A DNA stretch of 64,000 nucleotides from Escherichia phage vB_EcoM_PTE-Eco05. This document shows, in pieces, positions 4,757 through 48,907 of this stretch. The stretch lies in sequence record PQ306573.1; one strand, written 5' to 3'. The notes below the pieces were generated by a model that was not told the DNA's origin, did not search any database, and worked only from the letters and a program-made list of their open reading frames with translations. Within the stretch, counting starts at the first letter, position 1, and the number at the start of each line of letters is the position of its first letter. The position numbers and the translations under genes are program-made.

Positions 4757-4786
4757 GTTTACAACTAAGTAGGACTATGATATAGT
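4757..4786 (+). promoter_or_regulatory. T4-type early promoter
   Basis: GTTTAC-N18-TATAGT; inverted repeat AGGACTA/TAGTCCT straddles the -10. Confidence 0.55.
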
Positions 4787-4812
4787 AGTCCTATCTAAAA
4801 GAAGATAACATC

Positions 4813-5076
4813 ATGAAATTTAAATTTTTCTACGCAAAACATAAAGTAACAGGCGAATTTGTTTCAATGTGCAACACTGCAGATGACGAAGGGATGATTT
4901 ATACCCATTTGGGTCTATCTCATTGGGACTCGGACGTGCCTTATATGTCATCTGAAGCCGAAATAACTCGTTTAGTTAACGGACATATGAACGACCATTT
5001 TGGTATTATTCTTTCTAAAGACCTTAAAGAGGTTATCAACAAAGGATATATGGAACTCGCGGAAGTTGAGATATGA
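4813..5076 (+). CDS. Hypothetical early protein
   Basis: 87-aa ORF downstream of early promoter. Confidence 0.45.
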   Translation: MKFKFFYAKHKVTGEFVSMCNTADDEGMIYTHLGLSHWDSDVPYMSSEAEITRLVNGHMNDHFGIILSKDLKEVINKGYMELAEVEI

Positions 5077-5268
5077 GCTCTAAAATGTGGATAGGAATAT
5101 GGTTGCTTAGTATCCCAATGATTTGTATAATATTTTCAATTGTGTTGAGGTACTTATGAAAAATGCACTTCTTATTGTACTAAGAACAATTTGTGATGCG
5201 TGGTTTTACATCGCATGTTCGTTCACTGGAACATGGTTGGCTTTAACATATTTTAATGTAATTTAATT

Positions 5269-5298
5269 GTTTACAACAAGGTAGGATTATGGTATAGT
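5269..5298 (+). promoter_or_regulatory. T4-type early promoter
   Basis: GTTTAC-N18-TATAGT with inverted repeat GTAGGATTA/TAGTCCTAC. Confidence 0.55.
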
Positions 5299-5326
5299 AG
5301 TCCTACTGAAACATGAGGAACACAAA

Positions 5327-5527
5327 ATGGCTAAGCTTTTTAAAGATGTTGAAATTGGTGAAAAATTTGTTCTGAATAACGGTCAGCAGCTTATTCGTGT
5401 AGCTTCTATCGCCGGACAAACTCATAACTGTATCGCCCCAACGTGTTGGACTCGATTCTTTATTGAAGATGACACTGAATGTTTAACTGTTGAAGAGCTT
5501 TTTGAACGTTCTGATATAGCCGAATAA
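5327..5527 (+). CDS. Hypothetical early protein
   Basis: 66-aa ORF with GAGGAA RBS. Confidence 0.45.
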   Translation: MAKLFKDVEIGEKFVLNNGQQLIRVASIAGQTHNCIAPTCWTRFFIEDDTECLTVEELFERSDIAE

Positions 5528-5529
5528 AA

Positions 5530-5559
5530 TTGTACAAACTCTTGAGAGCAGAGTATAAT
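5530..5559 (+). promoter_or_regulatory. T4-type early promoter
   Basis: TTGTAC-N18-TATAAT; inverted repeat GAGAGC/GCTCTC flanks the -10. Confidence 0.5.
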
Positions 5560-5605
5560 GCTCTCATGGATTACAAAAAAACATTAATCAATTGAGGAAA
5601 TTAGC

Positions 5606-6052
5606 ATGTCCAAATATTTAACTCGTAAAGACCTTCTGGCAGTTGGCGGTGAAGTTGTTGCAGTAGTTCGTAATGGCGAATACGGTTCTGAAGTTTCTAA
5701 AGAGTTTCGTTCTCGTGAAGGTTTTTACTTCTTCGTTAAAGGTTCATCTGATTGGCGACAAGTAGCAGCACGATTCTTTGTAGGACGTCAACGTTCTAAA
5801 CAAGGGTTGGATGCAATTCTTTCTCACATTCGTCAAGGCCGTTCGCAACTAGCCCGTACCATGGGCACTAACAATATTGAATATGATGTAATCTTTGTTG
5901 CAGCTAAGAACATGAAACCACTGACCACTGGTTATGGTAAAGGTCAATTGGCTCTGGCATTCACTCGCAACCATACATCAGAATATCAAACACTCACTGA
6001 AATGAACCGTCTTCTGGCTGATAATTTCAAATTCATTCTGCAGAGTTACTAA
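5606..6052 (+). CDS. ndd: Nucleoid disruption protein Ndd
   Basis: 148 aa; strong match to remembered T4 Ndd (e.g. RFYVGxQRSKQG, SHIRQxRSQLART, [20 protein letters not shown]). Confidence 0.85.
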
Positions 6053-6104
6053 TTTATACAGGCCTATTAAGTTAGGCCTTTAATTTATTTTTGAGGTAAT
6101 TAAA

Positions 6105-6251
6105 ATGGTATCATGGATTATTGCATTGTTGTGTTGGTCGTTTTTATTCGTTAACACTTTAGTTACAGGCGAAACAACGGTATTTCAACAGGCCGTATCA
6201 CAAGGCACCTTAGCGGTCTTAGCTCTTCTTAACGTGTTAAAAGGCGAGTAA
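6105..6251 (+). CDS. Small hydrophobic membrane peptide (48 aa), possibly ac/52.1-like
   Basis: Not in ORF track; ATG 6105, hydrophobic MVSWIIALLCWSFLFV; stop overlaps next start (TAATG). Confidence 0.35.
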   Translation: MVSWIIALLCWSFLFVNTLVTGETTVFQQAVSQGTLAVLALLNVLKGE

Positions 6252-6391
6252 TGATTAAGAAAATCTTAGCAGGAGCCTTCGGGCTCTTGTTGTTGCTTAC
6301 GGTTCTGTACTACGGTGTGATGTTTGGACTAATCCAAGTAGTGCTTTTCATTTCAGATGTTATAATGGTTATTCGTTCATTAATATGGTGA
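6251..6391 (+). CDS. Small hydrophobic membrane peptide (46 aa)
   Basis: Not in ORF track; MIKKILAGAFGLLLLLTVLYYGV; ends 4 nt before gene 52. Confidence 0.35.
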   Translation: MIKKILAGAFGLLLLLTVLYYGVMFGLIQVVLFISDVIMVIRSLIW

Positions 6392-6395
6392 AAAT

Positions 6396-7721
6396 ATGCA
6401 ATTGAATTCTCGTAATCTAAAAAGTATTATTGATAACGAAGCCTTAGCATATGCGATGTACACCGTTGAAAACCGTGCAATCCCAAACATGATTGATGGA
6501 TTTAAGCCGGTTCAACGTTTTGTGGTTCATCGTGCGTTAGATTTGGCTCGTGGTAATAAAGAAAAATTTCATAAACTTGCGTCAATTGCAGGAGGTGTTG
6601 CAGATTTAGGTTATCACCATGGTGAATCTTCTGCACAAGATGCAGGTGCATTGATGGCTAACACATGGAACAACAACTATCCACTGTTAGATGGCCAAGG
6701 CAACTTTGGTTCTAGAACAGTCCAAAAAGCTGCAGCATCTCGTTATATTTTTGCTCGTGTAAGTAAAAATTTCTATAACGTATATAAAGACACTGAATAT
6801 GCTCCAGCTCATGAAGATAAAGAACATATTCCACCAAAATTCTATCTTCCTATTATTCCGACAGTTCTTTTGAATGGTGTCTCTGGTATTGCAACCGGTT
6901 ACGCAACAAATATTCTGCCTCATAGTTTTAAATCAGTCAAAAAGGCTGTATTACAAGCTCTTCAAGGTAAAAATGTCACTAAGCCAAAAGTTGAATTCCC
7001 GGAATTCCGTGGTGAAGTACATGAAGTTGATGGGCGTTATGAGATTCACGGAACATATAAGTTCACGTCTCGCACTCAAATGCAGATAACTGAAATCCCA
7101 TATAAATTCGACCGTGAAACGTATGTGAGTAAGGTTCTTGACCCGTTGGAAGACAAAGGTCTAATCTCATGGGAAGATGATTGTGGTGAACACGGCTTTG
7201 GGTTTAAGGTGAAGTTCCGTAAAGAGTACTCGCTTCCTGATGATGAAGAGCTACGTCATGAAAAAATCATGAAAGATTTTAGTCTCATCGAACGTCGTTC
7301 ACAAAACATCACAGTGATTAATGAAAAGGGTAAATTAGCGGTCTACGATAACGTAGTGGACTTAATCAAAGATTTTGTTGAAGTCCGTAAGACTTACGTT
7401 CAGAAACGTATTGACAACAAAATCCTTGAATCTGAAAAAGCATTTAAACTGGCTTTTGCTAAGGCGCACTTCATCAAAAAAGTTATCAACGGTGAAATTG
7501 TGATTCAAGGCAAGACTCGTAAAGCTTTGACTGAAGAGCTAGCACAAATCGAAATGTATAAAGAACATGTCGATAAACTGGTAGGTCTTAACATCTTCCA
7601 TATCACTTCCGATGAAGCACGTAAATTAGCAGAAGAAGCTAAAGCTAAGAAAGAAGAAAATGAGTATTGGAAGTCTACTGATGTTGTGACAGAGTACACT
7701 AAAGACTTGGAGGCACTTTGA
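6396..7721 (+). CDS. 52: DNA topoisomerase II medium subunit (GyrA-like)
   Basis: 441 aa; FKPVQRFVVHRAL and YHHGESS motifs; T4 gp52 length. Confidence 0.9.
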   Translation: MQLNSRNLKSIIDNEALAYAMYTVENRAIPNMIDGFKPVQRFVVHRALDLARGNKEKFHKLASIAGGVADLGYHHGESSAQDAGALMANTWNNNYPLLDGQGNFGSRTVQKAAASRYIFARVSKNFYNVYKDTEYAPAHEDKEHIPPKFYLPIIPTVLLNGVSGIATGYATNILPHSFKSVKKAVLQALQGKNVTKPKVEFPEFRGEVHEVDGRYEIHGTYKFTSRTQMQITEIPYKFDRETYVSKVLDPLEDKGLISWEDDCGEHGFGFKVKFRKEYSLPDDEELRHEKIMKDFSLIERRSQNITVINEKGKLAVYDNVVDLIKDFVEVRKTYVQKRIDNKILESEKAFKLAFAKAHFIKKVINGEIVIQGKTRKALTEELAQIEMYKEHVDKLVGLNIFHITSDEARKLAEEAKAKKEENEYWKSTDVVTEYTKDLEAL

Positions 7722-7797
7722 GTGCCCTAGCCTTAGGATTTCTCGGTGCAATAGCTGCACTAGTGATTTGGCTGTATTGGTTGGACAAACATGATTA

Positions 7798-7817
7798 GGG
7801 AGCTTCGGCTCCCTTTT
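7798..7817 (+). terminator. Rho-independent terminator, UUCG hairpin
   Basis: GGGAGC-TTCG-GCTCCC + TTTTG. Confidence 0.65.
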
Positions 7818-7841
7818 GTGCATTTTTTTCCTCACAAAACA

Positions 7842-7870
7842 GTTTACATGTGCTTCAAACATGATATTAT
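7842..7870 (+). promoter_or_regulatory. Early/middle promoter upstream of motA
   Basis: GTTTAC-N17-TATTAT; TGCTTCA (MotA-box-like) in the spacer. Confidence 0.5.
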
Positions 7871-7909
7871 AGACCTATCAAAACAAAACAACCAAATTGG
7901 AGAAATAAA

Positions 7910-8542
7910 ATGTCTAAAGTTACTTACATCATCAAAGCTTCTGAAAACGCTCTGAATGAAAAAACTGCTGCAATAATGGTTTATATCATTAAGAACAACT
8001 TCACCACTGCTGCCAATGTCCGTGAAGCTCTGGAAGCGGAATACAACGCATCGGTTGTTAACTCTAACATTGGTGTATTGATTAAGAAAGGTTTAGTCGA
8101 AAAATCCGGTGATGGACTTGTAGCAACAGGCGAAGCAATGGATATTATCCAAAAAGCTGCAGACCTCTTTGCCCAAGAAAATGCTCCAGAACTTCTTCAG
8201 AAACGTAACACTAGAAAAGCACGTGGAGTTACTCCTGAAATGCATGAATTAGCAAACTTTGTTTTTGAAAATATTAAAGATAAAGTTGAAGTTAAAGAAA
8301 TTGGTGAAAACCGTAGTAACTTGGAAGTTCGATTTGCAAAACGAGTTCTAGGTATTCGTCAGATCGAAATTCGTCGAGATGGTTCTCTTAGAATCTTTGC
8401 ATACAACATGTCAGAAACTGAATCAAAGCTGTTTACTTCTCTTGAAAATGATGTTAAGATTAAGATCGGTGGTAAATATACTTACATTGACTTCCCTAAT
8501 GTGTCCAAAGAAATCATTACCCTTGTAACTAATGTACTGTGA
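7910..8542 (+). CDS. motA: Middle-transcription activator MotA
   Basis: 210 aa; N-terminus MSKVTYIIKAS and internal NSNIGVLIKKGLVEKSGDGL match T4 MotA. Confidence 0.9.
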   Translation: MSKVTYIIKASENALNEKTAAIMVYIIKNNFTTAANVREALEAEYNASVVNSNIGVLIKKGLVEKSGDGLVATGEAMDIIQKAADLFAQENAPELLQKRNTRKARGVTPEMHELANFVFENIKDKVEVKEIGENRSNLEVRFAKRVLGIRQIEIRRDGSLRIFAYNMSETESKLFTSLENDVKIKIGGKYTYIDFPNVSKEIITLVTNVL

Positions 8543-8552
8543 GGAATACATA

Positions 8553-8882
8553 ATGAATAAGCTGAATATTATTAACGAACTTCGTAAATGTGCAGAACCT
8601 ACTCAGGAAGGATGGGATATTTGGTACCACGGGGCTTATTTAGGGACAATTGTAAAGATTAAAGCAGGCCAATATACGGTTATTCGTGAAAATAATGACG
8701 CACCATTTGGCCTTCGTAAAAACTACATGGCAGCGATCAGTTCATTTGTTGATGCAGCTTACGAAATCTATAAAGAAGATTATAAAGAATATCAGCAGTC
8801 ACAACCGGTTATTCGTTCGATTGGTGTAAATAAACAAGCACAAAAATCTATTTGGCAACGTATTAAAGGATGGTTTAAATGA
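8553..8882 (+). CDS. Hypothetical early protein
   Basis: ORF-track frame 8532..8882; ATG 8553 preferred (GAGG RBS, clears motA stop). Confidence 0.45.
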
Positions 8883-9340
8883 AAACTTTTAAAGAACGTT
8901 TAGCTCTGTTAGATAAAGCTTTGTCGCGTGAGACTCCGGAAAGTCTGGCTGCTAAATTAGCTTCTTACGGCGGCGAATATACAGAACAAAATGTTTTAGA
9001 TGAAGTTCCTGAAATCTGTTGGCAGACTCTGTATTGGGATGAAAACCAAAAGTATCAACGTCGAATTGTCTGTGCAGCCAACCGTTTTAAATTAAAAGAT
9101 GGACGAACTCTTATTATTCCAGGTGCTCGTCATTATTCTAAAGATATGGCAGAAGTTTTAGATGTAGTTAAACCTCAATTAGTTACTCAACAAGTTTGTG
9201 GTGACGACCAAGGCTTTATCGACCAATATAGTAATTATTGGACACGTGAAGAAGCAATGATTATTGCAACTTACGCTGGACAAGTACGTATTGAACGTGG
9301 TGGTAATGAAAAAGAACTTTACTCTGAGGACCTTTACTAA
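8879..9340 (+). CDS. Hypothetical early protein
   Basis: 153-aa ORF, start overlaps upstream stop (ATGA). Confidence 0.5.
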
Positions 9341-9621
9341 TGAATCTTAAACAACTCCAGATTGATGCTATTGAAGCCCACATTAATCATATCAAACGCC
9401 TGAATGCTATGATGGAAGAAAATTATGGTATGTATGCTAATCAGCCTGGTTGGGATGCTTTAGACCATCCTTATTTGGTTAATTTATGTAAAGGTGATAC
9501 GTTAGCAATTATTCGTGATGGGTTAAAACCTTTCTTGCGCGACATGTATATTAAAATGAACGAAGAAATTATTAGCTCGTTGCAATATCAATTAAGGAAA
9601 TTAGATGATGAGAATAATTGA
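9340..9621 (+). CDS. Hypothetical early protein
   Basis: 93-aa ORF, coupled to upstream ORF. Confidence 0.5.
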   Translation: MNLKQLQIDAIEAHINHIKRLNAMMEENYGMYANQPGWDALDHPYLVNLCKGDTLAIIRDGLKPFLRDMYIKMNEEIISSLQYQLRKLDDENN

Positions 9622-9823
9622 TTCTAAAGCAGATTATTTTAATTCTGTTAATGATAAGAATAAAGCTTTAATTCGCCACTTTATTACTGAGATGGGATAT
9701 ACCGACTCTAAAGATTTGAAAGAGCACATTATCGAATGTTCTGTGGCTAAAAAGTTTTCTTTCACAGACAAATGTTTAAACGAGGTTATAAATCATTATG
9801 AACAATCTTGTAGCAAAACATGA
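9605..9823 (+). CDS. Hypothetical early protein
   Basis: 72-aa ORF. Confidence 0.45.
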   Translation: MMRIIDSKADYFNSVNDKNKALIRHFITEMGYTDSKDLKEHIIECSVAKKFSFTDKCLNEVINHYEQSCSKT

Positions 9824-9905
9824 TTTCAATAAGGCTTCTGTTCATAAGGACAAGAAGAAATCGGAACTTCAATCTAAACGCAAACAAAAACATAAGGGTA
9901 AAGAC

Positions 9906-10194: not shown

Positions 10195-10195
10195 T

Positions 10196-10357
10196 ATGAG
10201 CCATAATCTTCAGAACGTAGTAGAGGCAGAACGTGAGCGTGAGGCTTTAGTCTATAATGAACTATTAGCCACGTTCTTGGCCTTACACTCGTATGAACAG
10301 GAAGACTACACTGATTACGTTAAAAGTGTAGAAAAAGCTGTTTACAATCAACACTGA
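10196..10357 (+). CDS. Hypothetical small acidic protein
   Basis: 53 aa from ATG 10196, directly after previous stop. Confidence 0.35.
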   Translation: MSHNLQNVVEAEREREALVYNELLATFLALHSYEQEDYTDYVKSVEKAVYNQH

Positions 10358-10403
10358 TAATGGTACTATACTCATATCAACTAAATGGAATGAATAAAAC
10401 GTT

Positions 10404-11348: not shown

Positions 11349-11355
11349 TTATCAA

Positions 11356-12180: not shown

Positions 12181-12185
12181 TCTTA

Positions 12186-21245: not shown

Positions 21246-21275
21246 ATTTACGCTTTCGAACTAGTATGTTACTAT
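21246..21275 (+). promoter_or_regulatory. Early-type promoter upstream of rnh
   Basis: ATTTAC-N18-TACTAT. Confidence 0.45.
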
Positions 21276-24492: not shown

Positions 24493-24514
24493 GGGAGACT
24501 TCGGTCTCCCTTTT
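24493..24514 (+). terminator. Rho-independent terminator, UUCG hairpin
   Basis: GGGAGAC-TTCG-GTCTCCC + TTTTG. Confidence 0.7.
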
Positions 24515-24541
24515 GAGTATCTGTAAATTGCCGAAAAAGTT

Positions 24542-24570
24542 GTTTACTTCTTCCCTGGATGTGTTAGTAT
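24542..24570 (+). promoter_or_regulatory. T4-type early promoter
   Basis: GTTTAC-N17-TAGTAT. Confidence 0.5.
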
Positions 24571-24599
24571 AGACCTATCAACAACATGAGGAAATCAAA

Positions 24600-24992
24600 A
24601 TGGAAATCGGAAAATCTTATATCATTAACCCTTTATTTAAAGATGACTTTGTTCAAGAAGCACCACACAATAACGCTAAGATGTTAAAATTGATTGAACT
24701 CCACGGGCCTAGTTTTGTTGTAAACGGAATGAAACCTGATTATGATAGCGATACGTCAAACGTAGTAAGTGTAACTATGGAAGATGGTACTGTATGTTCT
24801 GCCGGTGGTGAAATTGAAACTTATTTTGAGATTTATTATGATGAGTTCAAATACTTTACTGAGGTAGATTTAGTAAAGCCTCAACCTACTAACGAAGGTA
24901 TAACTTTAGGTATAACAAAAATCCATTGTATCGTAGATGAAACTAACGTCGACGAAATCATCAAACTTTTGCAAAAAACTTTTAAAAAGTAG
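24600..24992 (+). CDS. Hypothetical protein (frd.3 position)
   Basis: 130-aa ORF with GAGGAAA RBS. Confidence 0.5.
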   Translation: MEIGKSYIINPLFKDDFVQEAPHNNAKMLKLIELHGPSFVVNGMKPDYDSDTSNVVSVTMEDGTVCSAGGEIETYFEIYYDEFKYFTEVDLVKPQPTNEGITLGITKIHCIVDETNVDEIIKLLQKTFKK

Positions 24993-25021
24993 TTTATAAC
25001 AAGATAGGGCTATGTTATAGT
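24992..25021 (+). promoter_or_regulatory. T4-type early promoter
   Basis: GTTTAT-N18-TATAGT. Confidence 0.5.
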
Positions 25022-25054
25022 AGTCCTATCAAATCAAAAGTGAAGGAGAATAAA

Positions 25055-25303
25055 ATGAGATTGCAACGCCAGAGCATCAAAGATTCTGAAGTTAGAGGTA
25101 AATGGTACTTCAACATCGTTGGTAAAGATTCTGAACTTGTTGAAAAAGCTGAACATCTTTTACGCGATATGGGATGGGAAGATGAATGCGATGGATGTCC
25201 TCTTTATGAAGACGGAGAAAGCGCAGGATTCTGGATTTACCATTCTGACGTCGAGCAGTTTAAAGCTGATTGGAAAGTTGTTAAGAAAAATCTGAGGAAA
25301 TAA
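25055..25303 (+). CDS. Hypothetical protein (frd.2 position)
   Basis: ATG 25055 with GAAGGAG RBS; track start 25040 is GTG. Confidence 0.45.
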   Translation: MRLQRQSIKDSEVRGKWYFNIVGKDSELVEKAEHLLRDMGWEDECDGCPLYEDGESAGFWIYHSDVEQFKADWKVVKKNLRK

Positions 25304-29578: not shown

Positions 29579-30289
29579 ATGGATTATTCTAAAATTTACA
29601 ATAACCTTATTTCTAAAGCTAAGAATAGAAAATTAGATTGCTATACCGAATCACACCATATTATACCTCTGTGTATTGGTGGTTCTGATACAAAGGAAAA
29701 CCTGGTAGATTTGACACCAGAAGAGCATTACATAGCTCATCAATTATTAGTAAAGATATATCCAGATAATCATAAATTGATATTTGCCGCTAATATGATG
29801 TGTGTTTATTCTAAAGATAATATTGAACGAAAGAACACCAATAAACGCCATGGGTGGCTTAGAAGAAAATTGGCTATTTCTGTATCTGAAAATAATAAAG
29901 GCAAACCAGCTTGGAACAAAGGTATTCCTATGTCTCCAGAAGTTAAATCTCGACTTCAAACATCTTGGGTGTTTACATTTCCGGATGGTCATGAGGAAAT
30001 TCATCGAGGTCTTAACGAATTTTGTAAAGAGCATAATTTAAATCCATCTGCAATGTCAGCCGTTTGTAAAGGTAAACGGGCGCATCACAAAGGATTTAAG
30101 TGTAAGAAATTGGATAAGATTTCAGAGCTTGATAATTTAGTTTTCGTCAGTAAACCTCATCCAAAGGGATTAAAACCCCATAACTTAATTGCTGTAAAAA
30201 TAAACGGTATAGAATATCAATCAATACATCGAGCATCTAAAGCTTTAGGAATTACTAGAAAAAAGGTAGAAGAATTAAATGAATATTGA
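29579..30289 (+). CDS. Free-standing HNH homing endonuclease (MobE/Hef-like) inserted within nrdA
   Basis: 236 aa; HNH motif ESHHIIPLCIGGSDTKENLVDLTPEEHYIAH; C-terminal HTH-like IEYQSIHRASKALGITRKKV; own RBS AAGAGGA. Confidence 0.85.
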   Translation: MDYSKIYNNLISKAKNRKLDCYTESHHIIPLCIGGSDTKENLVDLTPEEHYIAHQLLVKIYPDNHKLIFAANMMCVYSKDNIERKNTNKRHGWLRRKLAISVSENNKGKPAWNKGIPMSPEVKSRLQTSWVFTFPDGHEEIHRGLNEFCKEHNLNPSAMSAVCKGKRAHHKGFKCKKLDKISELDNLVFVSKPHPKGLKPHNLIAVKINGIEYQSIHRASKALGITRKKVEELNEY

Positions 30290-31268
30290 TTATGAATTTG
30301 TAGATGAATTTTACGAAGATGATGAGTATACTACAATAAAAGTTATTGAAAACAAGGGAGAAGTGGGGCTTTGTACTCTCTCTGCATTCGTATTAGATAA
30401 ATTTGATTGGCAAGACCAAGATAAAATTAATGAACTTGCTGAAGTACAAGTACGTGCACTTGATAACCTGTTAGACTATCAAGATTATCCGGTTCCAGAA
30501 GCTTTAAAAGCTAAAAAGCGTCGTAATCTTGGTGTTGGTGTTACGAACTATGCTGCATGGTTAGCTTCTAACTTTGCTTCATATGAAGACGCTAACGATT
30601 TGACTCATGAATTGTTTGAGAGATTGCAATATGGCCTTATCAAAGCATCAATCAAACTCGCCAAAGAAAAAGGATGTTGCGAGTATTATTCAGACACTAA
30701 ATGGTCTAGAGGCGAATTACCTATCGACTGGTACAATAAAAAGATTGACCAAATCGCAGCCCCGAACTACGTCTGTGACTGGGAAGAACTTCGAGCTGAA
30801 CTCAAAGAACATGGAATTCGTAACTCAACGTTGTCTGCACTCATGCCTTGTGAGTCAAGCAGTCAAGTATCGAACTCTACAAACGGGATTGAGCCCCCAC
30901 GTGGTCCAGTAAGTATTAAAGAATCTAAAGAAGGCAACTTCCGACAGGTTGTTCCTAATATCGAACATAACATGAGTCTTTACGACTACGCGTGGAAACT
31001 TGCTAAGAAAGGTAATAAACCTTATTTGACCCAAGTTGCTATCATGTTGAAATGGGTGTGCCAATCTGCTTCTGCTAATACTTACTACGACCCTGCAGTA
31101 TTTGAGAAAGGTAAAGTGCCAATGTCAGTAATGCTTGACGATCTGCTTTACTTCTGGTACTTTGGCGGAAAAAACCTCTACTATCATAACACCCGTGATG
31201 GGTCAGGTACAGATGACTATGAATTAGAAACACCTAAAGCTGAAGATTGCTCTGCTTGTAAGCTTTAA
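30279..31268 (+). CDS. nrdA: Ribonucleotide reductase large subunit, C-terminal piece (NrdA-b)
   Basis: 329 aa; GLCTLSAF (E. coli C462 equivalent), C-terminal CSACKL redox tail; ATG embedded in HNH gene 3' end with AAGGTAG RBS. Confidence 0.85.
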   Translation: MNIDYEFVDEFYEDDEYTTIKVIENKGEVGLCTLSAFVLDKFDWQDQDKINELAEVQVRALDNLLDYQDYPVPEALKAKKRRNLGVGVTNYAAWLASNFASYEDANDLTHELFERLQYGLIKASIKLAKEKGCCEYYSDTKWSRGELPIDWYNKKIDQIAAPNYVCDWEELRAELKEHGIRNSTLSALMPCESSSQVSNSTNGIEPPRGPVSIKESKEGNFRQVVPNIEHNMSLYDYAWKLAKKGNKPYLTQVAIMLKWVCQSASANTYYDPAVFEKGKVPMSVMLDDLLYFWYFGGKNLYYHNTRDGSGTDDYELETPKAEDCSACKL

Positions 31269-31323: not shown

Positions 31324-31999
31324 ATGAGTACAGTTTTTAATACACAACAAGTCGATGTTTTGAACGAACCGATGTTCTTTGGTTCTGGTCTTGGTCTTGC
31401 ACGGTATGATATTCAGCGTCATAAAGTTTTTGAAGAACTTATAGAAAAATCCTTGTCATTTTTCTGGCGCCCCGAAGAGGTAAACTTAATGTTGGACTCT
31501 GCACAGTTCAATAAGCTTCCTCAGTTCCAACAGGACATCTTTACAAACAATCTTAAGTATCAATCATTATTGGATTCTATCCAAGGCAGGGCCCCATCTG
31601 CGGTACTTATGGCACTGCTTTCCGACCCTTCATTAGATACGTGGGTTGCAACATGGACATTCAGTGAAACTATTCACTCTCGTTCATATACTCATATTAT
31701 GCGAAATCTTTATACCGATCCATCCAAAGTATTTGATGAGATTGTATTAGACGAAGCAATCATGAAACGAGCTGAATCAATAGGTAAATATTACGATGAT
31801 GTTCTAGTCAAGACTCGTAATTGGGAAAATGCTAAAGAATTTGTAGAACTAGCTAAAGAATCTCCTGATGCCGACTTTCGTTTAAACCGAGCTATTAAAC
31901 AAGAAGCCGAAGCTAAACGTGCTTTAATGAAATCTCTTTACCTCTGTTTGCACGTTATTAATGCCTTAGAAGCTATTCGTTTTTATGTATCTTTTGCGT
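31324..31999 (+). CDS. nrdB: Ribonucleotide reductase small subunit, exon 1
   Basis: Ends ...EAIRFYVSFA + first nt of Cys codon; in-frame TAA at intron start. Confidence 0.85.
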
Positions 32000-33597: not shown

Positions 33598-33611
33598 GGG
33601 ACTTCGGTCCC
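33598..33611 (+). terminator. UUCG-tetraloop hairpin downstream of nrdB (weak U tract)
   Basis: GGGAC-TTCG-GTCCC. Confidence 0.45.
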
Positions 33612-33619: not shown

Positions 33620-34030
33620 ATGAAAGATATTGCCGCCGAATATTCCTTTATTAAATATATAGAATTGGAGCTATTAGAAGATGCAACAATTAAAACAGTT
33701 GATGTCCCTAATAAGAAAAATGTCATATATGCTATTGCTATAGATGACGAACTTGTGTATATTGGTAAAACCAAGAATTTAAAGAAACGCATTAACTATT
33801 ATCGAACAGCCATAAATCGAAAAGACCAGACTTCAGATTCAAGAAAATCACTTATGATTTTGGATGCCTTAATGCAAGGCAAAAAGGTTGAATTCTGGGC
33901 CCGCCAATGTTTTGACCTTTCAGTCACCAACGAACTTGGTTCAATGACCATCGCAACAATGGACCTTGAAGAACCACTTTTTATCAAAAAGTTCAACCCG
34001 CCTTGGAATATCCAACATAAGAAAAAGTAG
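33620..34030 (+). CDS. denA: Endonuclease II (DenA), GIY-YIG-like
   Basis: 136 aa; VYIGKTKNLKKRINYY motif; T4 DenA length and position. Confidence 0.85.
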   Translation: MKDIAAEYSFIKYIELELLEDATIKTVDVPNKKNVIYAIAIDDELVYIGKTKNLKKRINYYRTAINRKDQTSDSRKSLMILDALMQGKKVEFWARQCFDLSVTNELGSMTIATMDLEEPLFIKKFNPPWNIQHKKK

Positions 34031-34059
34031 TTTACATACCACAAGGATTGTGGTACAAT
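34030..34059 (+). promoter_or_regulatory. T4-type early promoter
   Basis: GTTTAC-N18-TACAAT; inverted repeat CCACAA/TTGTGG in spacer. Confidence 0.5.
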
Positions 34060-34076: not shown

Positions 34077-35210
<1,134 letters not shown>

Positions 35211-35212: not shown

Positions 35213-35242
35213 GTTTACAAACACCAAGGAAGGTGTTACTAT
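35213..35242 (+). promoter_or_regulatory. T4-type early promoter
   Basis: GTTTAC-N18-TACTAT. Confidence 0.5.
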
Positions 35243-36404: not shown

Positions 36405-36619
36405 CTAAAGAACAGCATGAATACATTAAAGGGCTTATCTATGAATCTGAAATGGCGGCTATGATTTATGGACGCCAGATTCAACGATTAGAATCTTTGC
36501 CTCCGACTAATGACCGCTTGTTAGTTCAGTCTCGTGCTAATCTGAAAAATGAATATCAGAATAAGTGGGCAGTAGCGACTAAAGCTCTTCATGAGTATAT
36601 TGAATCTTTAGTAAAATAG
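36395..36619 (+). CDS. Hypothetical protein
   Basis: 74-aa ORF coupled to upstream ORF. Confidence 0.45.
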   Translation: MPMTKEQHEYIKGLIYESEMAAMIYGRQIQRLESLPPTNDRLLVQSRANLKNEYQNKWAVATKALHEYIESLVK

Positions 36620-36648
36620 TTTACAAACTCTCGGGAGCAGAGTATAAT
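36619..36648 (+). promoter_or_regulatory. T4-type early promoter
   Basis: GTTTAC-N18-TATAAT; inverted repeat GGAGCA/TGCTCC flanks -10. Confidence 0.5.
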
Positions 36649-36676
36649 GCTCCTATGGATAATTGAGGAAATCTAA

Positions 36677-36975
36677 ATGAAAACATTACTAGAGAATTAC
36701 ATCAAACGGTCTGATGAGTATATTGATATCTGCCGTGGAATGTCACTTGTAGATTATGGCAAAGATGCAGCAAAGGCACTAGATGAAGCAGGTAAAGCTC
36801 TTCGTAAAGCTGCTAAAGAAAAAGGGTTGGATTTGCAACAACTCAAAAGTCATATGATTAAATTTATTTCTTCAAACGTTAGAAGTACGTCAATTAATAA
36901 AAACGTTGCTGAAATTAATAAAGACCGGCGCGAGCATAACATTCGTATTCTTGAAACTTTCTTAGGAATAAAATA

Positions 36976-36976
<1 letters not shown>
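36677..36976 (+). CDS. Hypothetical protein
   Basis: 99-aa ORF. Confidence 0.45.
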
Positions 36977-38745: not shown

Positions 38746-38775
38746 GTTTACAACATGGTGGAGTTGTGATACTAT
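38746..38775 (+). promoter_or_regulatory. T4-type early promoter
   Basis: GTTTAC-N18-TACTAT. Confidence 0.5.
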
Positions 38776-38803
38776 AACTCTACCAACAAATGAGGAAATA
38801 GAA

Positions 38804-39040
38804 ATGCTAAGTGAAAACCCAATTACAGTACACGAATTTCAGATTAAAGTAAAAGAATTTGCTCAAGCACTCATCAATAAAGTGTCTGAACGTTTCCAAG
38901 ATGCAACATTACGAGTTATTCAAGAATCTCCACGTTCTTTTCTCATAATCGTTAATCCTAAAGATGGTGACCAAATTACTAATCTTAAATTAGGCAGTGA
39001 TGGTCTTGTTGAAGCAACTCGAGTATATGGAACACTATAA
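38804..39040 (+). CDS. Hypothetical small protein
   Basis: 78-aa ORF with GAGGAAA RBS. Confidence 0.45.
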   Translation: MLSENPITVHEFQIKVKEFAQALINKVSERFQDATLRVIQESPRSFLIIVNPKDGDQITNLKLGSDGLVEATRVYGTL

Positions 39041-42269: not shown

Positions 42270-42274
42270 TTTTA

Positions 42275-42296
42275 GGGAGACTTCGGTCTCCCTTTT
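42275..42296 (+). terminator. Rho-independent terminator, UUCG hairpin
   Basis: GGGAGAC-TTCG-GTCTCCC + TTTTG. Confidence 0.7.
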
Positions 42297-42329
42297 GTGA
42301 GTTTAGGGCAGAAAAAGTTTAAAAAAGAT

Positions 42330-42359
42330 GTTTACTCTCCTGTAGGATGTGTTACTATA
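42330..42359 (+). promoter_or_regulatory. T4-type early promoter
   Basis: GTTTAC-N18-TACTAT. Confidence 0.5.
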
Positions 42360-42399
42360 GACTTGTACCACCTAATCAATAAAACAACCGGAGAATAAA

Positions 42400-42765
42400 A
42401 TGAACTACATCAACTTCGAACGCAAATATGTTTCTAACGGTATCGCTGGTTCTATCGATATGGTTTGCTTGTGGAAGCATAAAAATGGTTCAGTATGTGA
42501 AATTGAGCAGTATATGACTCCTAATTACGTTTATATGCGCTTTGAAAATGGTATCACGGTTTCAATCACGATGGAAGGTTCCAACTTCAAAATTGCATTA
42601 GATGACGATTTCCGTCAACGTGATTTAGGTACTCATCCTTGCTGGAACGGTGTTAATCGTAAACTTCTGGTTAAAACTTGGATTCGTCATATCCTGAGTA
42701 ACCGAGCTAAACCTGAACATCTCGAAGCAATCTTTGATGTAGTTCTTAACGAATTCGATATCTAA
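42400..42765 (+). CDS. Hypothetical protein
   Basis: 121-aa ORF with GGAGAA RBS. Confidence 0.5.
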   Translation: MNYINFERKYVSNGIAGSIDMVCLWKHKNGSVCEIEQYMTPNYVYMRFENGITVSITMEGSNFKIALDDDFRQRDLGTHPCWNGVNRKLLVKTWIRHILSNRAKPEHLEAIFDVVLNEFDI

Positions 42766-42772
42766 TTTAACT

Positions 42773-42788
42773 GGGAGCCGAAGCTCCC
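42773..42788 (+). other. RNA hairpin (GNRA-type loop)
   Basis: GGGAGC-CGAA-GCTCCC, no clear U tract. Confidence 0.35.
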
Positions 42789-42804
42789 TATTGAGGAAAA
42801 TATT

Positions 42805-43286: not shown

Positions 43287-43287
43287 T

Positions 43288-44778: not shown

Positions 44779-44787
44779 GGGTTAATT

Positions 44788-45057
44788 ATGTTTGTAGTTC
44801 ATGATATTACAGATGGCAAAAATACCACACGTGACTACGGTCACGTTAACATGTTCTTTCGAGACTGGCCATTGTTTCGTTCAGTAAAAGACGCAGAAAT
44901 ATTTAAAGAGTGTGTTGAACAAGGGTTCATCTACATTTCAGAATACTATGTTGAAGGACTCGGTAAATGGATTACCACTTATCAGAAAACGCTGAAATCG
45001 CTTCTAGATGAAGTGGCTTATAATAGAACCGTAACCAAAATCGAGGACATCAAATGA
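44788..45057 (+). CDS. Hypothetical protein (30.1 position)
   Basis: 89-aa ORF. Confidence 0.45.
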   Translation: MFVVHDITDGKNTTRDYGHVNMFFRDWPLFRSVKDAEIFKECVEQGFIYISEYYVEGLGKWITTYQKTLKSLLDEVAYNRTVTKIEDIK

Positions 45058-46547
45058 TTTTAGATATTTTAAACCAAATAGCTGCGATCGGTTCTACTAA
45101 AACAAAACAAGAAATCCTTAAGAAAAATAAGGACAACAAATTACTTGAACGTGTGTATCGTTTAACATATGCACGTGGTATCCAGTATTATATTAAGAAA
45201 TGGCCAGGACCAGGTGAAAGGTCTCAAGCGTATGGTCTTCTCGAATTAGATGACATGTTGGATTTTATTGAGTTCACATTAGCCACTCGTAAACTCACTG
45301 GTAATGCTGCAATTAAAGAGCTCATGGGTTATATCGCTGACGGTAAACCTGATGATGTAGAAGTCCTTCGTCGTGTAATGATGCGCGACCTTGAAGTAGG
45401 TGCTTCAGTGTCTATCGCGAATAAGGTGTGGCCTGGACTTATTCAATTGCAACCACAGATGTTAGCATCTGCATATGATGAGAAATTGATTACTAAAAAT
45501 ATTAAATGGCCTGCATTTGCTCAATTAAAAGCCGATGGTGCTCGTTGTTTCGCTGAAGTTCTCGATGATGGTGTTCAATTCTTTTCTCGTGCCGGTAACG
45601 AATACCATGGTCTTACTCTATTAGCGGATGAACTAATGGAAATGACTAAAGAAGCTCGTGAAAGACACCCTAATGGGGTTTTAATCGACGGCGAATTAGT
45701 TTATCATTCATTTGATATTAAAAAGGCTGTGAGCTCAGGAAATGACCTGTCGTTCTTATTTGGTGATAATGAAGAATCCGAAGAAGTACAGGTTGCAGAC
45801 CGTAGCACTTCAAATGGTTTAGCAAATAAATCTCTTCAAGGGACTATTTCTCCTAAAGAAGCGGAAGGTATGGTTCTTCAAGCCTGGGACTATGTTCCTT
45901 TAGATGAAGTCTATTCTGATGGCAAAATTAAAGGTCAGAAATACGATGTTCGTTTTGCTGCTCTTGAAAATATGGCTGAAGGCTTTAAGCGAATTGAGCC
46001 GATTGAAAATCAGTTAGTTCGTAATCTTGATGAAGCTAAATTGGTTTATAAAAAATATGTTGACCAAGGTCTTGAAGGTATTATCCTTAAAAACCGTGAT
46101 TCATATTGGGAAAACAAACGCTCTAAGAACCTAATTAAATTTAAAGAAGTTATTGATATCGCTTTAGAAGTTGTAGGATATTATGAACACTCTAAAGACC
46201 CTAACAAATTAGGTGGTGTCGAACTCGTATCACGTTGTCGTCGTATTACAACCGATTGTGGTTCAGGGTTTAAAGATACAACTCATAAAACAGTTGATGG
46301 TGTAAAGGTTCTTATTCCTTTAGATGAGCGTCATGATTTAGACCGTGAACGATTAATGTCCGAAGCTCGTGAAGGTAAATTGATTGGACGTATTGCTGAT
46401 TGTGAATGCAATGGTTGGGTTCATTCTAAAGGACGTGAAGGCACTGTAGGTATTTTCCTTCCAATTATTAAAGGGTTCCGTTTTGATAAAACAGAAGCGG
46501 ATTCATTTGAAGACGTATTTGGACCGTGGTCCCAGACAGGTTTATAA
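45054..46547 (+). CDS. 30: ATP-dependent DNA ligase
   Basis: 497 aa; adenylation motif AQLKADGARC (KxDG); position after 30.x ORFs. Confidence 0.9.
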   Translation: MILDILNQIAAIGSTKTKQEILKKNKDNKLLERVYRLTYARGIQYYIKKWPGPGERSQAYGLLELDDMLDFIEFTLATRKLTGNAAIKELMGYIADGKPDDVEVLRRVMMRDLEVGASVSIANKVWPGLIQLQPQMLASAYDEKLITKNIKWPAFAQLKADGARCFAEVLDDGVQFFSRAGNEYHGLTLLADELMEMTKEARERHPNGVLIDGELVYHSFDIKKAVSSGNDLSFLFGDNEESEEVQVADRSTSNGLANKSLQGTISPKEAEGMVLQAWDYVPLDEVYSDGKIKGQKYDVRFAALENMAEGFKRIEPIENQLVRNLDEAKLVYKKYVDQGLEGIILKNRDSYWENKRSKNLIKFKEVIDIALEVVGYYEHSKDPNKLGGVELVSRCRRITTDCGSGFKDTTHKTVDGVKVLIPLDERHDLDRERLMSEAREGKLIGRIADCECNGWVHSKGREGTVGIFLPIIKGFRFDKTEADSFEDVFGPWSQTGL

Positions 46548-46735
46548 TGAAAGCTTATTTAGAAACAGTTATTGTAGCTAAGAAGGATGGTGGAGATGTT
46601 TCCACCTCTTGCTCTCAGATTATATTAGATTTTCCTAATGAAAATTCGTATCGGGTTTTCGTAGATAACGTTAATGGGTACGAAAAAGGCCCCAATTTTG
46701 AAGTTTATCGTACTTTGCTCCCGATTGTGGATTAA
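46547..46735 (+). CDS. Hypothetical small protein
   Basis: 62 aa from ATG overlapping ligase stop (TAATG). Confidence 0.4.
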   Translation: MKAYLETVIVAKKDGGDVSTSCSQIILDFPNENSYRVFVDNVNGYEKGPNFEVYRTLLPIVD

Positions 46736-46754
46736 GAGCCTTCGGGCTCTTTTT
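46736..46754 (+). terminator. Rho-independent terminator, UUCG hairpin
   Basis: GAGCC-TTCG-GGCTC + TTTTT. Confidence 0.65.
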
Positions 46755-46762
46755 GGCATAAA

Positions 46763-46770
46763 TATAAATT
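46763..46770 (+). promoter_or_regulatory. Late-promoter-like element upstream of alt
   Basis: TATAAATT (7/8 to TATAAATA). Confidence 0.4.
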
Positions 46771-46790
46771 ATTACTAAAAGGAAAACACT

Positions 46791-48878
46791 ATGTCTGAAC
46801 AATTAAATGAAGTGTTTGAATCTGAAGGCAGTCTTCCTGTCGTCAATTTGAACCCTAAAGCTAAAGTTCCACAAGTCTGGAAAATTGGTGATATCGATAC
46901 AAACATCGTAGTTCGCTTATTCTCTTACCTTTCTGAAGGCGATGCTGTAAAACAAGTTAAACTTGGCGACAAATACGCTCATGTTGTTATTATGAGTCTG
47001 TCTGAAAAGGGTAATCTCGCTGAATTGAAAAATGGCCTTGGTCCTACTCCTATTGATGCAATCAACACCATTTTCAATACAGTATATGAACAGGTTAAAG
47101 CTCTTCGTATGGATGCAGTTCTGTTCCGATTCCCTACCAAGAAATTGAAAGGACGTGGACAGCAGCTTCAAACTCTTCTTGCTCGTTTAGTTTCTACTAA
47201 AACCGGTGGTCGTTTTAAAGTATTGTCGGCAATGTATCAATTCACAGGTAAACACACCTATGTGATGATGGTTCGTAAAAATGCCAACATTGAAGATATT
47301 AAAGGCATCCCTAACATTAACACAGAGTTGTACACGAAAGTAGATTCTGATGTTGGCGAAGTTTATGTGAGTAAAAAGACTGGCGAAAAGGTCACCAAAG
47401 AAACGGCTATCGCTGGTTCTATTGCTGCTGTAGAAGAAAAACGTAAAGATAAGCCTGTTATTGCTCGTACTAAAATTTCTCGTCGCGCTATTGCCGCAAG
47501 CCAATCTTTAGAAGCTGACCGCCAAGAAGGTGAGTTATTCCAGAAATATGAAAATTCTGCTAAAGAAGTTAGTGGCCCGGCTACAGCCGAATTACTTCCT
47601 GAAGCATATGAAATCGTACTAGCCCAAGCATCGTCCACAGCAAAAGGCACTTTAGTTGCTGATATCGAAAATAAGATTTATAATCGTATTGATGAATCCT
47701 TTAGATTTGCTGATGAAGTTTCTTATGGTAGTGTTATTAAGCCAACTTTAGAAAAGTTTGCTAAAAAAATTAAAACTGAAAAAACAACATCTGTTAAAGC
47801 ATTAGCTGCTTTTGTTGAAGCTGCAAATGAAATTGCAGACTCTATTAAAGACGAATGGTTTGAAGATTTTAGACGTGATAATTTCCAACTGGCCGACGAT
47901 GTTTTAGCTGAAGTATCTGAAAAAACTTGGAAACAACGTAAATCAGCGTTCTTGTCTAATGTGATGTATACTTATGCACGAGAATCGGCTAGAGGCACCT
48001 TTAATATAACAATGAATCGGGACCCTAAACAATACTCTGTTGCTGAAAAACGAGCTATTCGTGAATATGCCTCTTCTGCGTATACCGATATCAATAATAT
48101 GTTGTTAGGTCGTTATAAACCAGATTTTTACGATGTTGCGGATGAAGATGAAGTTAAACGCGCTATTGATGGTCTTGATTCGGCGTTTTTAAATGGAGAC
48201 CGTTTACCTGAAGGACTAACGTTATATAGAGCTCAGTCTATCAGAATGCCTATTTACGAAGCAATGGTTAAAAATAAGGTATTCTACTTCAGAAACTATG
48301 TTTCCACTTCACTAGCTCCTATTATTTTTGGTGGGTTTAAAGAGAACGTTGCCCTTGGACTTGCTCCTGAAGAAGTTCGCAAAGAGCTTAACATTGACAA
48401 TAATGACGAAGGTGTTACTATTTCTCCTAGTCAAGTAAGAACAGCTATGCATGCTCCAGAACAAATCCGTGTTAACGTTGGATGGGCTATTGATGGCGCC
48501 CATAAAGTTAACGTGATTTATCCAGGACAGTTGAGTAATCACCCTAATGAGCAAGAAATTATTTTGCCTAGAGGCATTCTCTTGCAGATAAATAAAATTA
48601 CAGATGCGTCATCTGACACCGGTGCAGGTTTAGAATCCAACCTTAAATTTATTCAAGCTGAAGTCATGTCCTCAGACCAGTTGGATGAAGCCGTCATTTA
48701 TGATGGTGATGTTCTCATGGAAACAGGCGAGGTGGTTGCTATGACGGGTGAAATCGAATCGGATGAGCCGGTATCGTTCTCCTCATTTGTAGAAAAAACT
48801 AGTGCACCTAAAGGTTTGAAATTGTTAGCATCTTTAATGGATTTAGAATCAGTTCCGTTTAAATTTGTCCAAGGATAG
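46791..48878 (+). CDS. alt: ADP-ribosyltransferase Alt (packaged head protein)
   Basis: 695 aa; C-terminal ART-like R / STS / E spacing; position between 30 and 54. Confidence 0.8.
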   Translation: MSEQLNEVFESEGSLPVVNLNPKAKVPQVWKIGDIDTNIVVRLFSYLSEGDAVKQVKLGDKYAHVVIMSLSEKGNLAELKNGLGPTPIDAINTIFNTVYEQVKALRMDAVLFRFPTKKLKGRGQQLQTLLARLVSTKTGGRFKVLSAMYQFTGKHTYVMMVRKNANIEDIKGIPNINTELYTKVDSDVGEVYVSKKTGEKVTKETAIAGSIAAVEEKRKDKPVIARTKISRRAIAASQSLEADRQEGELFQKYENSAKEVSGPATAELLPEAYEIVLAQASSTAKGTLVADIENKIYNRIDESFRFADEVSYGSVIKPTLEKFAKKIKTEKTTSVKALAAFVEAANEIADSIKDEWFEDFRRDNFQLADDVLAEVSEKTWKQRKSAFLSNVMYTYARESARGTFNITMNRDPKQYSVAEKRAIREYASSAYTDINNMLLGRYKPDFYDVADEDEVKRAIDGLDSAFLNGDRLPEGLTLYRAQSIRMPIYEAMVKNKVFYFRNYVSTSLAPIIFGGFKENVALGLAPEEVRKELNIDNNDEGVTISPSQVRTAMHAPEQIRVNVGWAIDGAHKVNVIYPGQLSNHPNEQEIILPRGILLQINKITDASSDTGAGLESNLKFIQAEVMSSDQLDEAVIYDGDVLMETGEVVAMTGEIESDEPVSFSSFVEKTSAPKGLKLLASLMDLESVPFKFVQG

Positions 48879-48907
48879 TTTACAAACACACAGATGTGTG
48901 ATACTAT
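48878..48907 (+). promoter_or_regulatory. T4-type early promoter
   Basis: GTTTAC-N18-TACTAT; inverted repeat ACACA/TGTGT in spacer. Confidence 0.5.

Follow-up and report, generated by a model that had tools for sequence, protein, structure and literature searches.

The DNA analyzed here is a 64,000-nt stretch of Escherichia phage vB_EcoM_PTE-Eco05 (sequence record PQ306573.1; hereafter, the window), and the subject of the analysis is a family of early promoters within it, part of which contains an inverted repeat around or next to the -10 element. A preliminary description of positions 4757–48907 had listed 13 members of this family. By the evidence assembled below, these elements are very probably cassettes of the promoter-early stem-loop (PeSL) type.

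The window represents a T4-like coliphage: a 12-kb stretch is 95–97.5% identical to Escherichia phages JM17, AV111, a20 and JK45, and an 8-kb stretch shows 94–97% identity with Mosigvirus genomes including ATK47, DCP548 and phi25-307. Its gene order agrees with that of RB69 and T4 read on the complementary strand. A first block (rIIB, denB, ndd, 52, motA, arn, asiA) is followed by t and the tail-fibre genes 38–34 on the opposite strand, by the next early block (rnh, 32, frd, td, nrdA/B, denA, rnlA, alc, pseT, cd, 31, 30, alt) and, after alt, by baseplate genes, again on the opposite strand. For comparative analysis, predicted early promoters were catalogued from 24 T4-like sources, i.e., the window, nine phage genome segments (T4, RB69, QL01, phiC600P9, JK45, CAU_ECP01, DCP548, phi25-307 and ATK47) and 14 IMG/VR loci found via Alc, and de-duplicated to a set of 72. 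A search of the whole window (1–64000) against Rfam 15 at gathering thresholds yielded zero matches.

Early promoters and their embedded hairpins

The motif GTTTAC-N17-19-TANNAT has 11 exact matches in the window, on the + strand only, vs. 0.88 expected from shuffled sequences (0 of 100 shuffles reach 11); a generic sigma-70 scan of the window showed no enrichment over shuffles, the enrichment being limited to the phage-specific motif. A more permissive rule (one -35 mismatch allowed, TAnnnT as the -10, and a site that must precede an open reading frame, ORF) yielded 17 candidates, the 13 already listed plus those at 8431, 10340, 61367 and 63373. The copies are confined to early-gene blocks and to the early-gene strand, and share an A-rich upstream stretch, a GTTTAC -35, a spacer of 17–18 nt and a TAnnnT -10, with a Shine-Dalgarno sequence and ATG about 25–60 nt past each copy (25–45 nt past the -10 at the nine hairpin promoters within 4757–48907). 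Orthologous promoters precede motA, asiA, rnh, rnlA, alc and cd.2 in T4 and RB69, and the T4 RefSeq record labels the cd.2 copy as early promoter Pe133295. Motif enrichment, strand restriction and orthologues in T4 and RB69 uphold the initial reading as an early promoter family, which is of the T4 type. All 13 listed elements are present, and the consensus originally given for them, GTTTAC-N18-TAnnAT, is imperfect at several: the -35 reads TTGTAC at 5530, ATTTAC at 21246 and GTTTAT at 24992; the -10 is TATAGT, outside TAnnAT, at 4757, 5269 and 24992; and the spacer is 17 nt at 7842, 24542 and 42330 (18 nt at the other listed sites).

Folding of the 37–38 nt after the -35, compared with 300 shuffles keeping the -10 in place, revealed a hairpin with a shuffle fraction ≤ 0.04 at 10 of the 17 promoters. 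At seven (4757, 5269, 5530, 24992, 36619, 38746 and 63373) the hairpin straddles the -10, with energies of -8 to -17 kcal/mol, and at three (34030, 35213 and 48878) it is shorter and essentially confined to the spacer; there is none at 7842, 8431, 21246, 24542, 42330 and 61367, and a weak one at 10340. Energies of -12 kcal/mol or lower, found at 6 of the 17 promoters, characterize 0.95% of all 38-nt + strand segments of the sequence. The preliminary statement that only part of the family has inverted repeats is thereby borne out across all 17 candidates. The repeats quoted there as bracketing the -10 were found in their places, with the qualification that the one at 34039–34053 falls within the spacer without enclosing the -10. 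Those examples did not include the hairpins at 38746 and 24992, the strongest of all. Among the quoted repeats, TAGGACTA / TAGTCCTA occupies 4770–4777 / 4786–4793, GTAGGATTA / TAGTCCTAC occupies 5281–5289 / 5298–5306 with one G.T pair, GGAGC / GCTCC occupies 36634–36638 / 36649–36653, and CCACAA / TTGTGG occupies 34039–34044 / 34048–34053. The hairpin promoters of the window are as follows (dG, folding free energy).

4757..4794, + strand: early promoter after denB and before the ORF 4813–5076; -35 at 4757–4762, -10 TATAGT at 4781–4786; hairpin arms 4769–4778 and 4785–4794 around the -10, dG -13.2 kcal/mol, 0 of 300 shuffles as stable; upstream stop codon ends at 4744, 12 nt from the -35.
5269..5307, + strand: early promoter before ndd.1 (5327–5527); -10 TATAGT at 5293–5298; hairpin arms 5280–5290 and 5297–5307 with one G.U pair, sense -13.6 vs. 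antisense -6.3 kcal/mol; upstream stop ends at 5266, 2 nt from the -35.
5530..5570, + strand: early promoter before ndd (5606–6052); -35 TTGTAC, -10 TATAAT at 5554–5559; hairpin GAGAGC / GCTCTC at 5544–5549 / 5560–5565 enclosing the whole -10, dG -13.9 kcal/mol; upstream stop ends at 5527.
24992..25030, + strand: early promoter before frd.1 (25055–25303); -35 GTTTAT, -10 TATAGT at 25016–25021; hairpin arms 25003–25013 and 25020–25030, sense -16.0 vs. antisense -8.9 kcal/mol; the upstream TAG stop shares the first base of the -35.
36619..36659, + strand: early promoter after pseT.1 and before the ORF 36677–36976; -10 TATAAT at 36643–36648; hairpin GGGAGC / GCTCCT around the -10, dG -12.2 kcal/mol; stop codon overlaps the -35.
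38746..38785, + strand: early promoter before cd.2 (38804–39040); -10 TACTAT at 38770–38775; hairpin of 13 pairs, three of them G.U, arms 38756–38768 and 38773–38785, sense -16.9 vs. antisense -8.1 kcal/mol.
34030..34059, + strand: early promoter before rnlA; spacer hairpin CCACAA / TTGTGG at 34037–34055, reaching 2 nt into the -10 at its 3' end, dG -8.3 kcal/mol, 0 of 300 shuffles as stable; denA stop codon overlaps the -35.
35213..35242, + strand: early promoter before alc; spacer hairpin ACACC / GGTGT at 35220–35237, dG -7.3 kcal/mol, shuffle fraction 0.04; rnlA stop ends at 35210.
48878..48907, + strand: early promoter after alt and before alt.-3 (48937–49230); spacer hairpin CACAC / GTGTG at 48887–48900, dG -5.6 kcal/mol, shuffle fraction 0.007; alt stop codon overlaps the -35.
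63373..63409, + strand: promoter-like GTTGAC-N17-TACCAT, outside the range described earlier; -10-straddling hairpin TGTGTGA / TCACACA, -8.4 kcal/mol; no Shine-Dalgarno sequence or ATG downstream, and status as a promoter uncertain.

The same tendency extends over the 72-promoter set: a hairpin with shuffle p ≤ 0.02 is present at 35% of these promoters, and 24% have an energy of -12 kcal/mol or lower vs. ~1% of background segments. The 3' arm consists for the most part of the conserved -10, discriminator and +1 segment itself (TATAGT-AGTCCTA, TACTAT-AACTCTACC), and the 5' arm lies in the spacer.

Pairing on the sense strand

With a stem finder that scores G.T and A.C alike, and counting stems with at least 7 Watson-Crick pairs, non-Watson-Crick pairs in the 72-promoter set amounted to 16 G.T vs. 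1 A.C on the + strand (binomial p = 2.7e-4 if an even split is expected, and 0.005 with the expectation of 0.64 given by arm composition). Wherever wobble pairs are present, the sense fold is 3–9 kcal/mol more stable than the antisense fold. The largest family, that of the TAGGACT arm (18 distinct sequences from several loci and phages), has 92.9% of its cells standard-paired vs. 20–62% with the partners slid; GU states occur at 5 of the 11 pairs of its alignment, and pair 13-38 is GC, GU or AU and paired in 18 of 18 sequences. The covariation analysis of repeat arms that had been proposed as a check was carried out on this family: compensatory changes are present, four pairs being changed on both sides, and the covariation score exceeds that of 500 out of 500 shuffles.

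Smaller groups of sequences add to this picture. In the paralogues 5530 and 36619, an A-T pair of one copy corresponds to G-C in the other, and the pair next to it is G-C, G.T or A-T depending on the copy; the outer pair of 36619 is G.U in the window and A-U in DCP548, phi25-307 and ATK47; and orthologues of 24992 display changes between G.U and G-C and between C-G and U.G. A substitution census on pairs derived from minimum free energy folds, with 41 pairing-preserving vs. 25 disrupting one-sided changes, includes weak terminal pairs and related sequences and is supportive only. The comparison with T4 early promoters, also proposed earlier, revealed hairpins at the orthologous T4 promoters: -10-straddling ones are found at frd.1 (-15.2 kcal/mol), cd.2 (-16.3) and 30.7 (-16.1), and the cd.2 hairpin, at Pe133295, is orthologous to that of 38746 with differences (G.U to A-U, U-A to U.G) that keep the pairing. 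RB69, QL01 and more distant relatives likewise have hairpins at orthologous promoters, with other arm sequences. At the frd.1 promoter, hairpins are found in Mosigvirus phages, T4 and QL01, with arms that differ among the three, and alc-promoter hairpins of distant Alc-bearing contigs reach -22.9 kcal/mol, the alc promoter of the window having the spacer type only. Relatives contribute further arm sequences (TGGTACAGG, GGGTGTAAGG, CCGGAAGT, AGGGTAGTAG, AGGCTATGG, CGAGAATC). Across phages, at least 10 unrelated stems are present, at orthologous as well as non-orthologous promoters. Judging from these alignments, it is the pairing rather than the sequence that is conserved, and on the sense strand only.

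The T4 record NC_000866 notes that 14 nt at 133300–133313 are the "inverted complement" of an earlier reported sequence, a change that corrects Pe133295; this segment is the loop, -10 included, of the cd.2 promoter hairpin. Inversion of the loop as a promoter switch was considered and rejected, an IMG/VR scan having found 0 inverted-loop copies vs. 7 normal ones, and the inverted segment was probably an old sequencing error rather than a natural switch. A degenerate promoter-plus-UTR (untranslated region) pattern was also run against IMG/VR and was not used, as the matches listed were mostly on unrelated contigs.

These data bear directly on the proposal, made in the preliminary description, that the palindromes are binding sites for a dimeric regulator or elements affecting promoter shut-off. 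Operators for a dimeric phage or host regulator, shutting off or tuning a subset of early promoters, would be plausibly placed here: the dyads overlap the -10, a classic operator position, they are present at only a subset of promoters, and T4 early shut-off is not fully explained, AsiA not being required for it (Hinton, 2010). However, a shared operator requires a conserved and strand-symmetric sequence, and it is not supported. The arms differ between promoters, with at least six unrelated ones in the window (TAGGACTA, GAGAGC, GGTGGAGTT, CCACAA, ACACC, CACAC) and more in relatives; the loop varies from 3 to 13 nt, and the 3' arm starts from -6 to +10 relative to the first -10 base. Retention of G.T but not A.C pairs (16:1) would be meaningless to a dimer that binds the duplex, the covarying arm positions preserve pairing and not sequence, and hairpin presence follows the layout of the upstream gene (see below) rather than the identity of the downstream one. 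An operator function is, in our estimate, extremely improbable.

Gene layout, terminators and cassette junctions

At all nine hairpin promoters within 4757–48907, the upstream stop codon lies -1 to 12 nt from the -35. Across the 72-promoter set, a stop within 16 nt of the -35 accompanies every one of the 23 hairpin promoters for which an upstream ORF was called (the 24th had no such call) vs. 19 of 43 hairpin-less ones (Fisher p = 1.6e-6), and in 12 of the 23 the stop overlaps the first -35 base, mostly as a TAG whose last base is also the G of GTTTAC. Canonical terminators within 130 nt upstream show the opposite distribution (0 of 24 hairpin promoters vs. 12 of 48 hairpin-less ones, p = 0.006); these terminators are GC-rich, mostly UUCG-loop hairpins followed by a T run, and lie 13–35 nt upstream. 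The embedded hairpin and the upstream terminator are mutually exclusive, and presence of the former is predicted by an upstream gene abutting the -35. The window matches this pattern, as three promoters without an internal hairpin are preceded by GGGAGCTTCGGCTCCC or GGGAGACTTCGGTCTCCC with T runs.

7797..7870, + strand: motA early promoter, no internal hairpin; UUCG-loop terminator and T run at 7797–7814, -35 at 7842, -10 at 7865–7870.
24493..24570, + strand: frd.2 early promoter, no internal hairpin; terminator GGGAGACTTCGGTCTCCC and T run at 24493–24510, -35 at 24542.
42274..42358, + strand: early promoter 42330, no internal hairpin; terminator GGGAGACTTCGGTCTCCC at 42274–42291; hybrid cassette (see below).

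The remaining candidates have a weak hairpin or none. At 21246, gene 34 upstream is on the - strand, and therefore no + strand transcript reaches the promoter from that side.

21246..21275, + strand: rnh early promoter, no hairpin; -35 ATTTAC; in a divergent intergenic region with gene 34 upstream on the - strand.
10340..10369, + strand: asiA early promoter; weak hairpin, -4.3 kcal/mol; stop of the upstream ORF (10357) within the spacer.
8431..8460, + strand: candidate promoter within the 3' end of motA, no hairpin; status uncertain.
61367: promoter candidate outside the range described earlier, no hairpin.

The cassettes contain other repeated parts. A near-identical 5' UTR, (T)ATCAACAACATGAGGAAA, lies downstream of 5269, 24542, 35213, 38746 and 48878, with the start codon 5–7 nt later and an ATG present within its Shine-Dalgarno region. 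At seven window sites there are GC-rich terminators, nearly identical to one another, in which a C(UUCG)G tetraloop is combined with a T run; this family looks like a second repeated cassette component.

UUCG terminator sites: 3928–3943, 7797–7814, 24493–24510, 33598–33611, 42274–42291, ~46733–46748 and ~61195–61208.

The copies of GGGAGACTTCGGTCTCCC at 24493 and 42274 are identical 18-mers. The terminator before the motA promoter has the sequence GGGAGC-TTCG-GCTCCC in both the window and phi25-307, and its exact reverse complement (loop CGAA) is found in RB69 and DCP548, so that this palindromic hairpin has been inverted between close relatives; the CGAA form is also present in the window at 42773–42788, after the ORF 42400–42765. 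A separate perfect hairpin at 62853–62886 (-24.5 kcal/mol; AAAAAGGGACCGTAAGGTCCCTTTTT), with A and T runs on either side, looks like a bidirectional terminator between convergent genes.

The cassettes are repeated and would therefore also be sites of homologous exchange that adds or removes small genes; in agreement with this, three of the three indels examined between close relatives have their junctions in cassette repeats. Gene 30.8, present in JK45, ATK47, RB69 and T4, is missing from the window. By blastn, window 41500–42404 matches JK45 30119–31024 and window 42314–42811 matches JK45 31377–31870; the 90 nt common to both (window 42314–42404; JK45 30934–31024 and 31377–31467) are the P30.8/P30.7 promoter cassette, and since they match both cassettes, 42330 is a hybrid cassette left by the loss of 30.8. 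An apparent loss of the hairpin at 42330 was discarded as a candidate observation, as the promoter had been paired with the paralogous 30.7 promoter before blastn revealed the absence of 30.8 and the hybrid cassette. The common first codons of genes 30.8 and 30.7 (MNYxNFERKY) suggest that the two arose by an old tandem duplication. In the second case, RB69, DCP548 and ATK47 have an extra ~110–240 nt at the frd.2 promoter (annotated as RB69ORF245c in RB69), bounded by a 22–26-nt 5' UTR/Shine-Dalgarno repeat with a single copy in the window at 24577–24602. In the third, the motA cassette is present in two copies in CAU_ECP01 and ATK47, with an additional 216-nt ORF between them (the 86-nt window stretch 7833–7918 matches twice).

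Such duplication and exchange could in principle account for the hairpins altogether, as by-products without function of cassette duplication, gene conversion and template-switch homogenization of quasi-palindromes. Clear paralogues (4757, 5269 and 24992; 5530 and 36619) and the recombination of cassettes are in line with this explanation, but template switching predicts perfect, strand-symmetric repeats and not a 16:1 excess of G.T, and neither the spread of the unrelated stems over phages and promoters, nor covariation beyond that of shuffles, nor the non-random tie to gene layout (p = 1.6e-6) is accommodated by it. We therefore consider an absence of function quite unlikely.

Possible role of the hairpin and relation to known PeSL systems

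Overall, we lean toward a role of the hairpin at the RNA level, acting in read-through RNA; its formation in vivo and its effect are what we infer from sequence features. Each cassette is ~90 nt long and comprises an upstream stop codon, a strong sigma-70-type T4 early promoter, the common 5' UTR, a Shine-Dalgarno sequence and the next start codon. An upstream gene abutting the -35 leaves no room for a separate intergenic hairpin, and because there is no other room the hairpin would be placed inside the next promoter: the freely varying spacer may have become complementary to the constrained -10/discriminator/+1 segment or, in the shorter version, to the TGn/-10-proximal part of the spacer. 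The promoter's own transcript would start inside the 3' arm and hence be devoid of the hairpin (the T4 name Pe133295 puts the start 7 nt past the -10, two bases from the end of the 3' arm). Read-through transcripts would carry it 10–25 nt past the upstream stop codon and, there being no terminator between stop and hairpin, every message of the upstream gene would contain it. The initial remark that the palindromes would be in DNA and not in the transcript is thus consistent with the predicted start of the promoter's own transcript, but it does not extend to upstream-gene messages, which run into the hairpin. As the 3' structure of the upstream message, the hairpin may attenuate or pause read-through, or block 3'->5' exonucleases, a job that at promoters with intergenic room would be done by the UUCG-loop terminator. 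A literature search on T4 3'-end mapping found nothing usable.

Rho-independent terminators and intercistronic mRNA-stabilizing hairpins are both known in enterobacteria. The embedded hairpins resemble them in being stable, in following soon after a stop codon and in being interchangeable in position with the UUCG-loop terminators of this phage, and differ from these enterobacterial elements in that their stem overlaps a promoter, their arms are promoter-constrained and a U tract is missing; the combination of a GC-rich stem with an immediate U tract is a property of the true terminators here and not of the embedded hairpins.

Several observations weigh against a role in read-through RNA. The sense-strand bias is equally compatible with pairing in the non-template DNA strand; many copies are kin by descent or gene conversion, and their counts are not fully independent; the spacer-only hairpins, with 5–8 pairs, have no strand bias; and the 19 hairpin-less promoters that also abut an upstream stop imply that the hairpin is not obligatory. 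Moreover, the tails of the embedded hairpins have no U tract (23% T, A-rich), and none of these hairpins scored as terminator-like on the + strand in a terminator scan of the window; they are therefore not canonical intrinsic terminators.

One rival explanation lies at the DNA level, a hairpin of the non-template strand or a cruciform that would form on unwinding (by supercoiling, polymerases or replication) and either modulate the embedded promoter or provide a target for recombination or structure-specific nucleases driving cassette shuffling. G.T pairs are tolerated in DNA hairpins, so the sense bias by itself agrees with the non-template strand; cassette-bounded indels are present; the palindromic hairpin of the motA terminator inverts between relatives; and one RB49 crossover was mapped to the loop, a DNA-binding recombination protein being speculated upon (Arbiol et al., 2010, PMC2839356). 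On the other hand, a cruciform requires both strands to be paired, and the antisense arms contain A.C mismatches. Two of the junctions examined fall in a stretch from the -35 region as far as the first codons and one falls in the 5' UTR/Shine-Dalgarno part, and two of the three junction cassettes have no internal hairpin, ordinary homology being enough. The link with abutting genes and the exclusion with RNA terminators are predictions of an RNA role. On this balance, DNA-level structure appears unlikely as the explanation.

A further conceivable function, which we regard as very unlikely, is that of a coupling device between tandem transcription units, neither terminator nor stabilizer: a hairpin of the nascent RNA or of the single non-template strand would form over the -10/+1 of the next promoter and make the polymerase arriving from upstream pause or dissociate, or else hide the -10, setting read-through against local initiation with no protein factor. 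If true, it would amount to a general means of promoter insulation in genomes without intergenic space.

With respect to the PeSL identity of the cassettes, the window contains the repeated promoter, the stem-loop, the stop and Shine-Dalgarno edges, the G-T pairs and the association with indels that define these elements at the sequence level; by position, seven stem-loops straddle the -10, three lie in the spacer, three promoters have an upstream terminator instead, and four have none or a weak one. In RB49 and phi1, as described by Arbiol et al. (2010, Genome Biol Evol 2:140, PMC2839356), PeSLs are repeated ~100-nt cassettes of five positional subclasses, composed of a stop codon in an AT-rich stretch, a strong early promoter, a stem-loop, and a Shine-Dalgarno sequence with start codon. 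Their stem-loops, with G-T pairs marked, are commonest between the -35 and -10 or overlapping the -10, and are proposed to attenuate upstream transcription, one of them having lowered reporter expression like a strong terminator; cassette exchanges shuffle small ORFs. The same authors mention analogous elements on early promoters of T4 and other T-even phages, with weaker, AT-richer stems, as well as the IP-locus elements of Repoila et al. (1994). PeSLs have also been catalogued in T4/PST and KVP40/nt-1, with the T4/PST consensus TTTACW-N17-TAYWAT (Comeau et al., 2014, PMC4122927). For RB69, 57 early promoters were predicted (Nolan et al., 2006); a term search of that paper for palindromes, stem-loops and spacers gave no match, and our literature search found no paper mentioning both PeSLs and RB69.

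Compared to these accounts, the window cassettes share with those of RB49 and phi1 the stop/promoter/stem-loop/Shine-Dalgarno arrangement, the position around the -10, the G-T pairs and the small-ORF indel junctions. The two sets differ in the -35 and in the stems, since RB49 and phi1 have near-perfect TTGACA-N17-TATAAT promoters and polyG/polyC stems, whereas the window cassettes have a GTTTAC -35 and mixed, AT-richer stems built partly from the -10 and discriminator. Terminator activity and mini-circles were shown experimentally for RB49 and phi1. The likeness to T4/PST includes the promoter consensus, the phage group, weaker and AT-richer stem-loops of variable size, and gene exchanges. The PST legend places stem-loops just upstream of the promoter (PMC4122927), which matches the terminator-plus-promoter arrangement at 7842, 24542 and 42330; the promoter-embedded hairpins of the window and of T4 (frd.1, cd.2 and 30.7) are not what this legend describes. 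The basic phenomenon has thus been published and the present gain is incremental; relative to the parts of the 2010 and 2014 papers considered here, the apparent and modest additions are the sense-strand-only pairing and the exclusion between hairpin and terminator by gene abutment.

With these results, T4 and an RB69-type phage join the genomes in which early promoters also serve as stem-loop cassettes. No unknown repressor needs to be postulated for the dyads, which should not be annotated as operators, and the cassettes point to probable breakpoints at which T4-like genomes used in phage therapy gain and lose genes.

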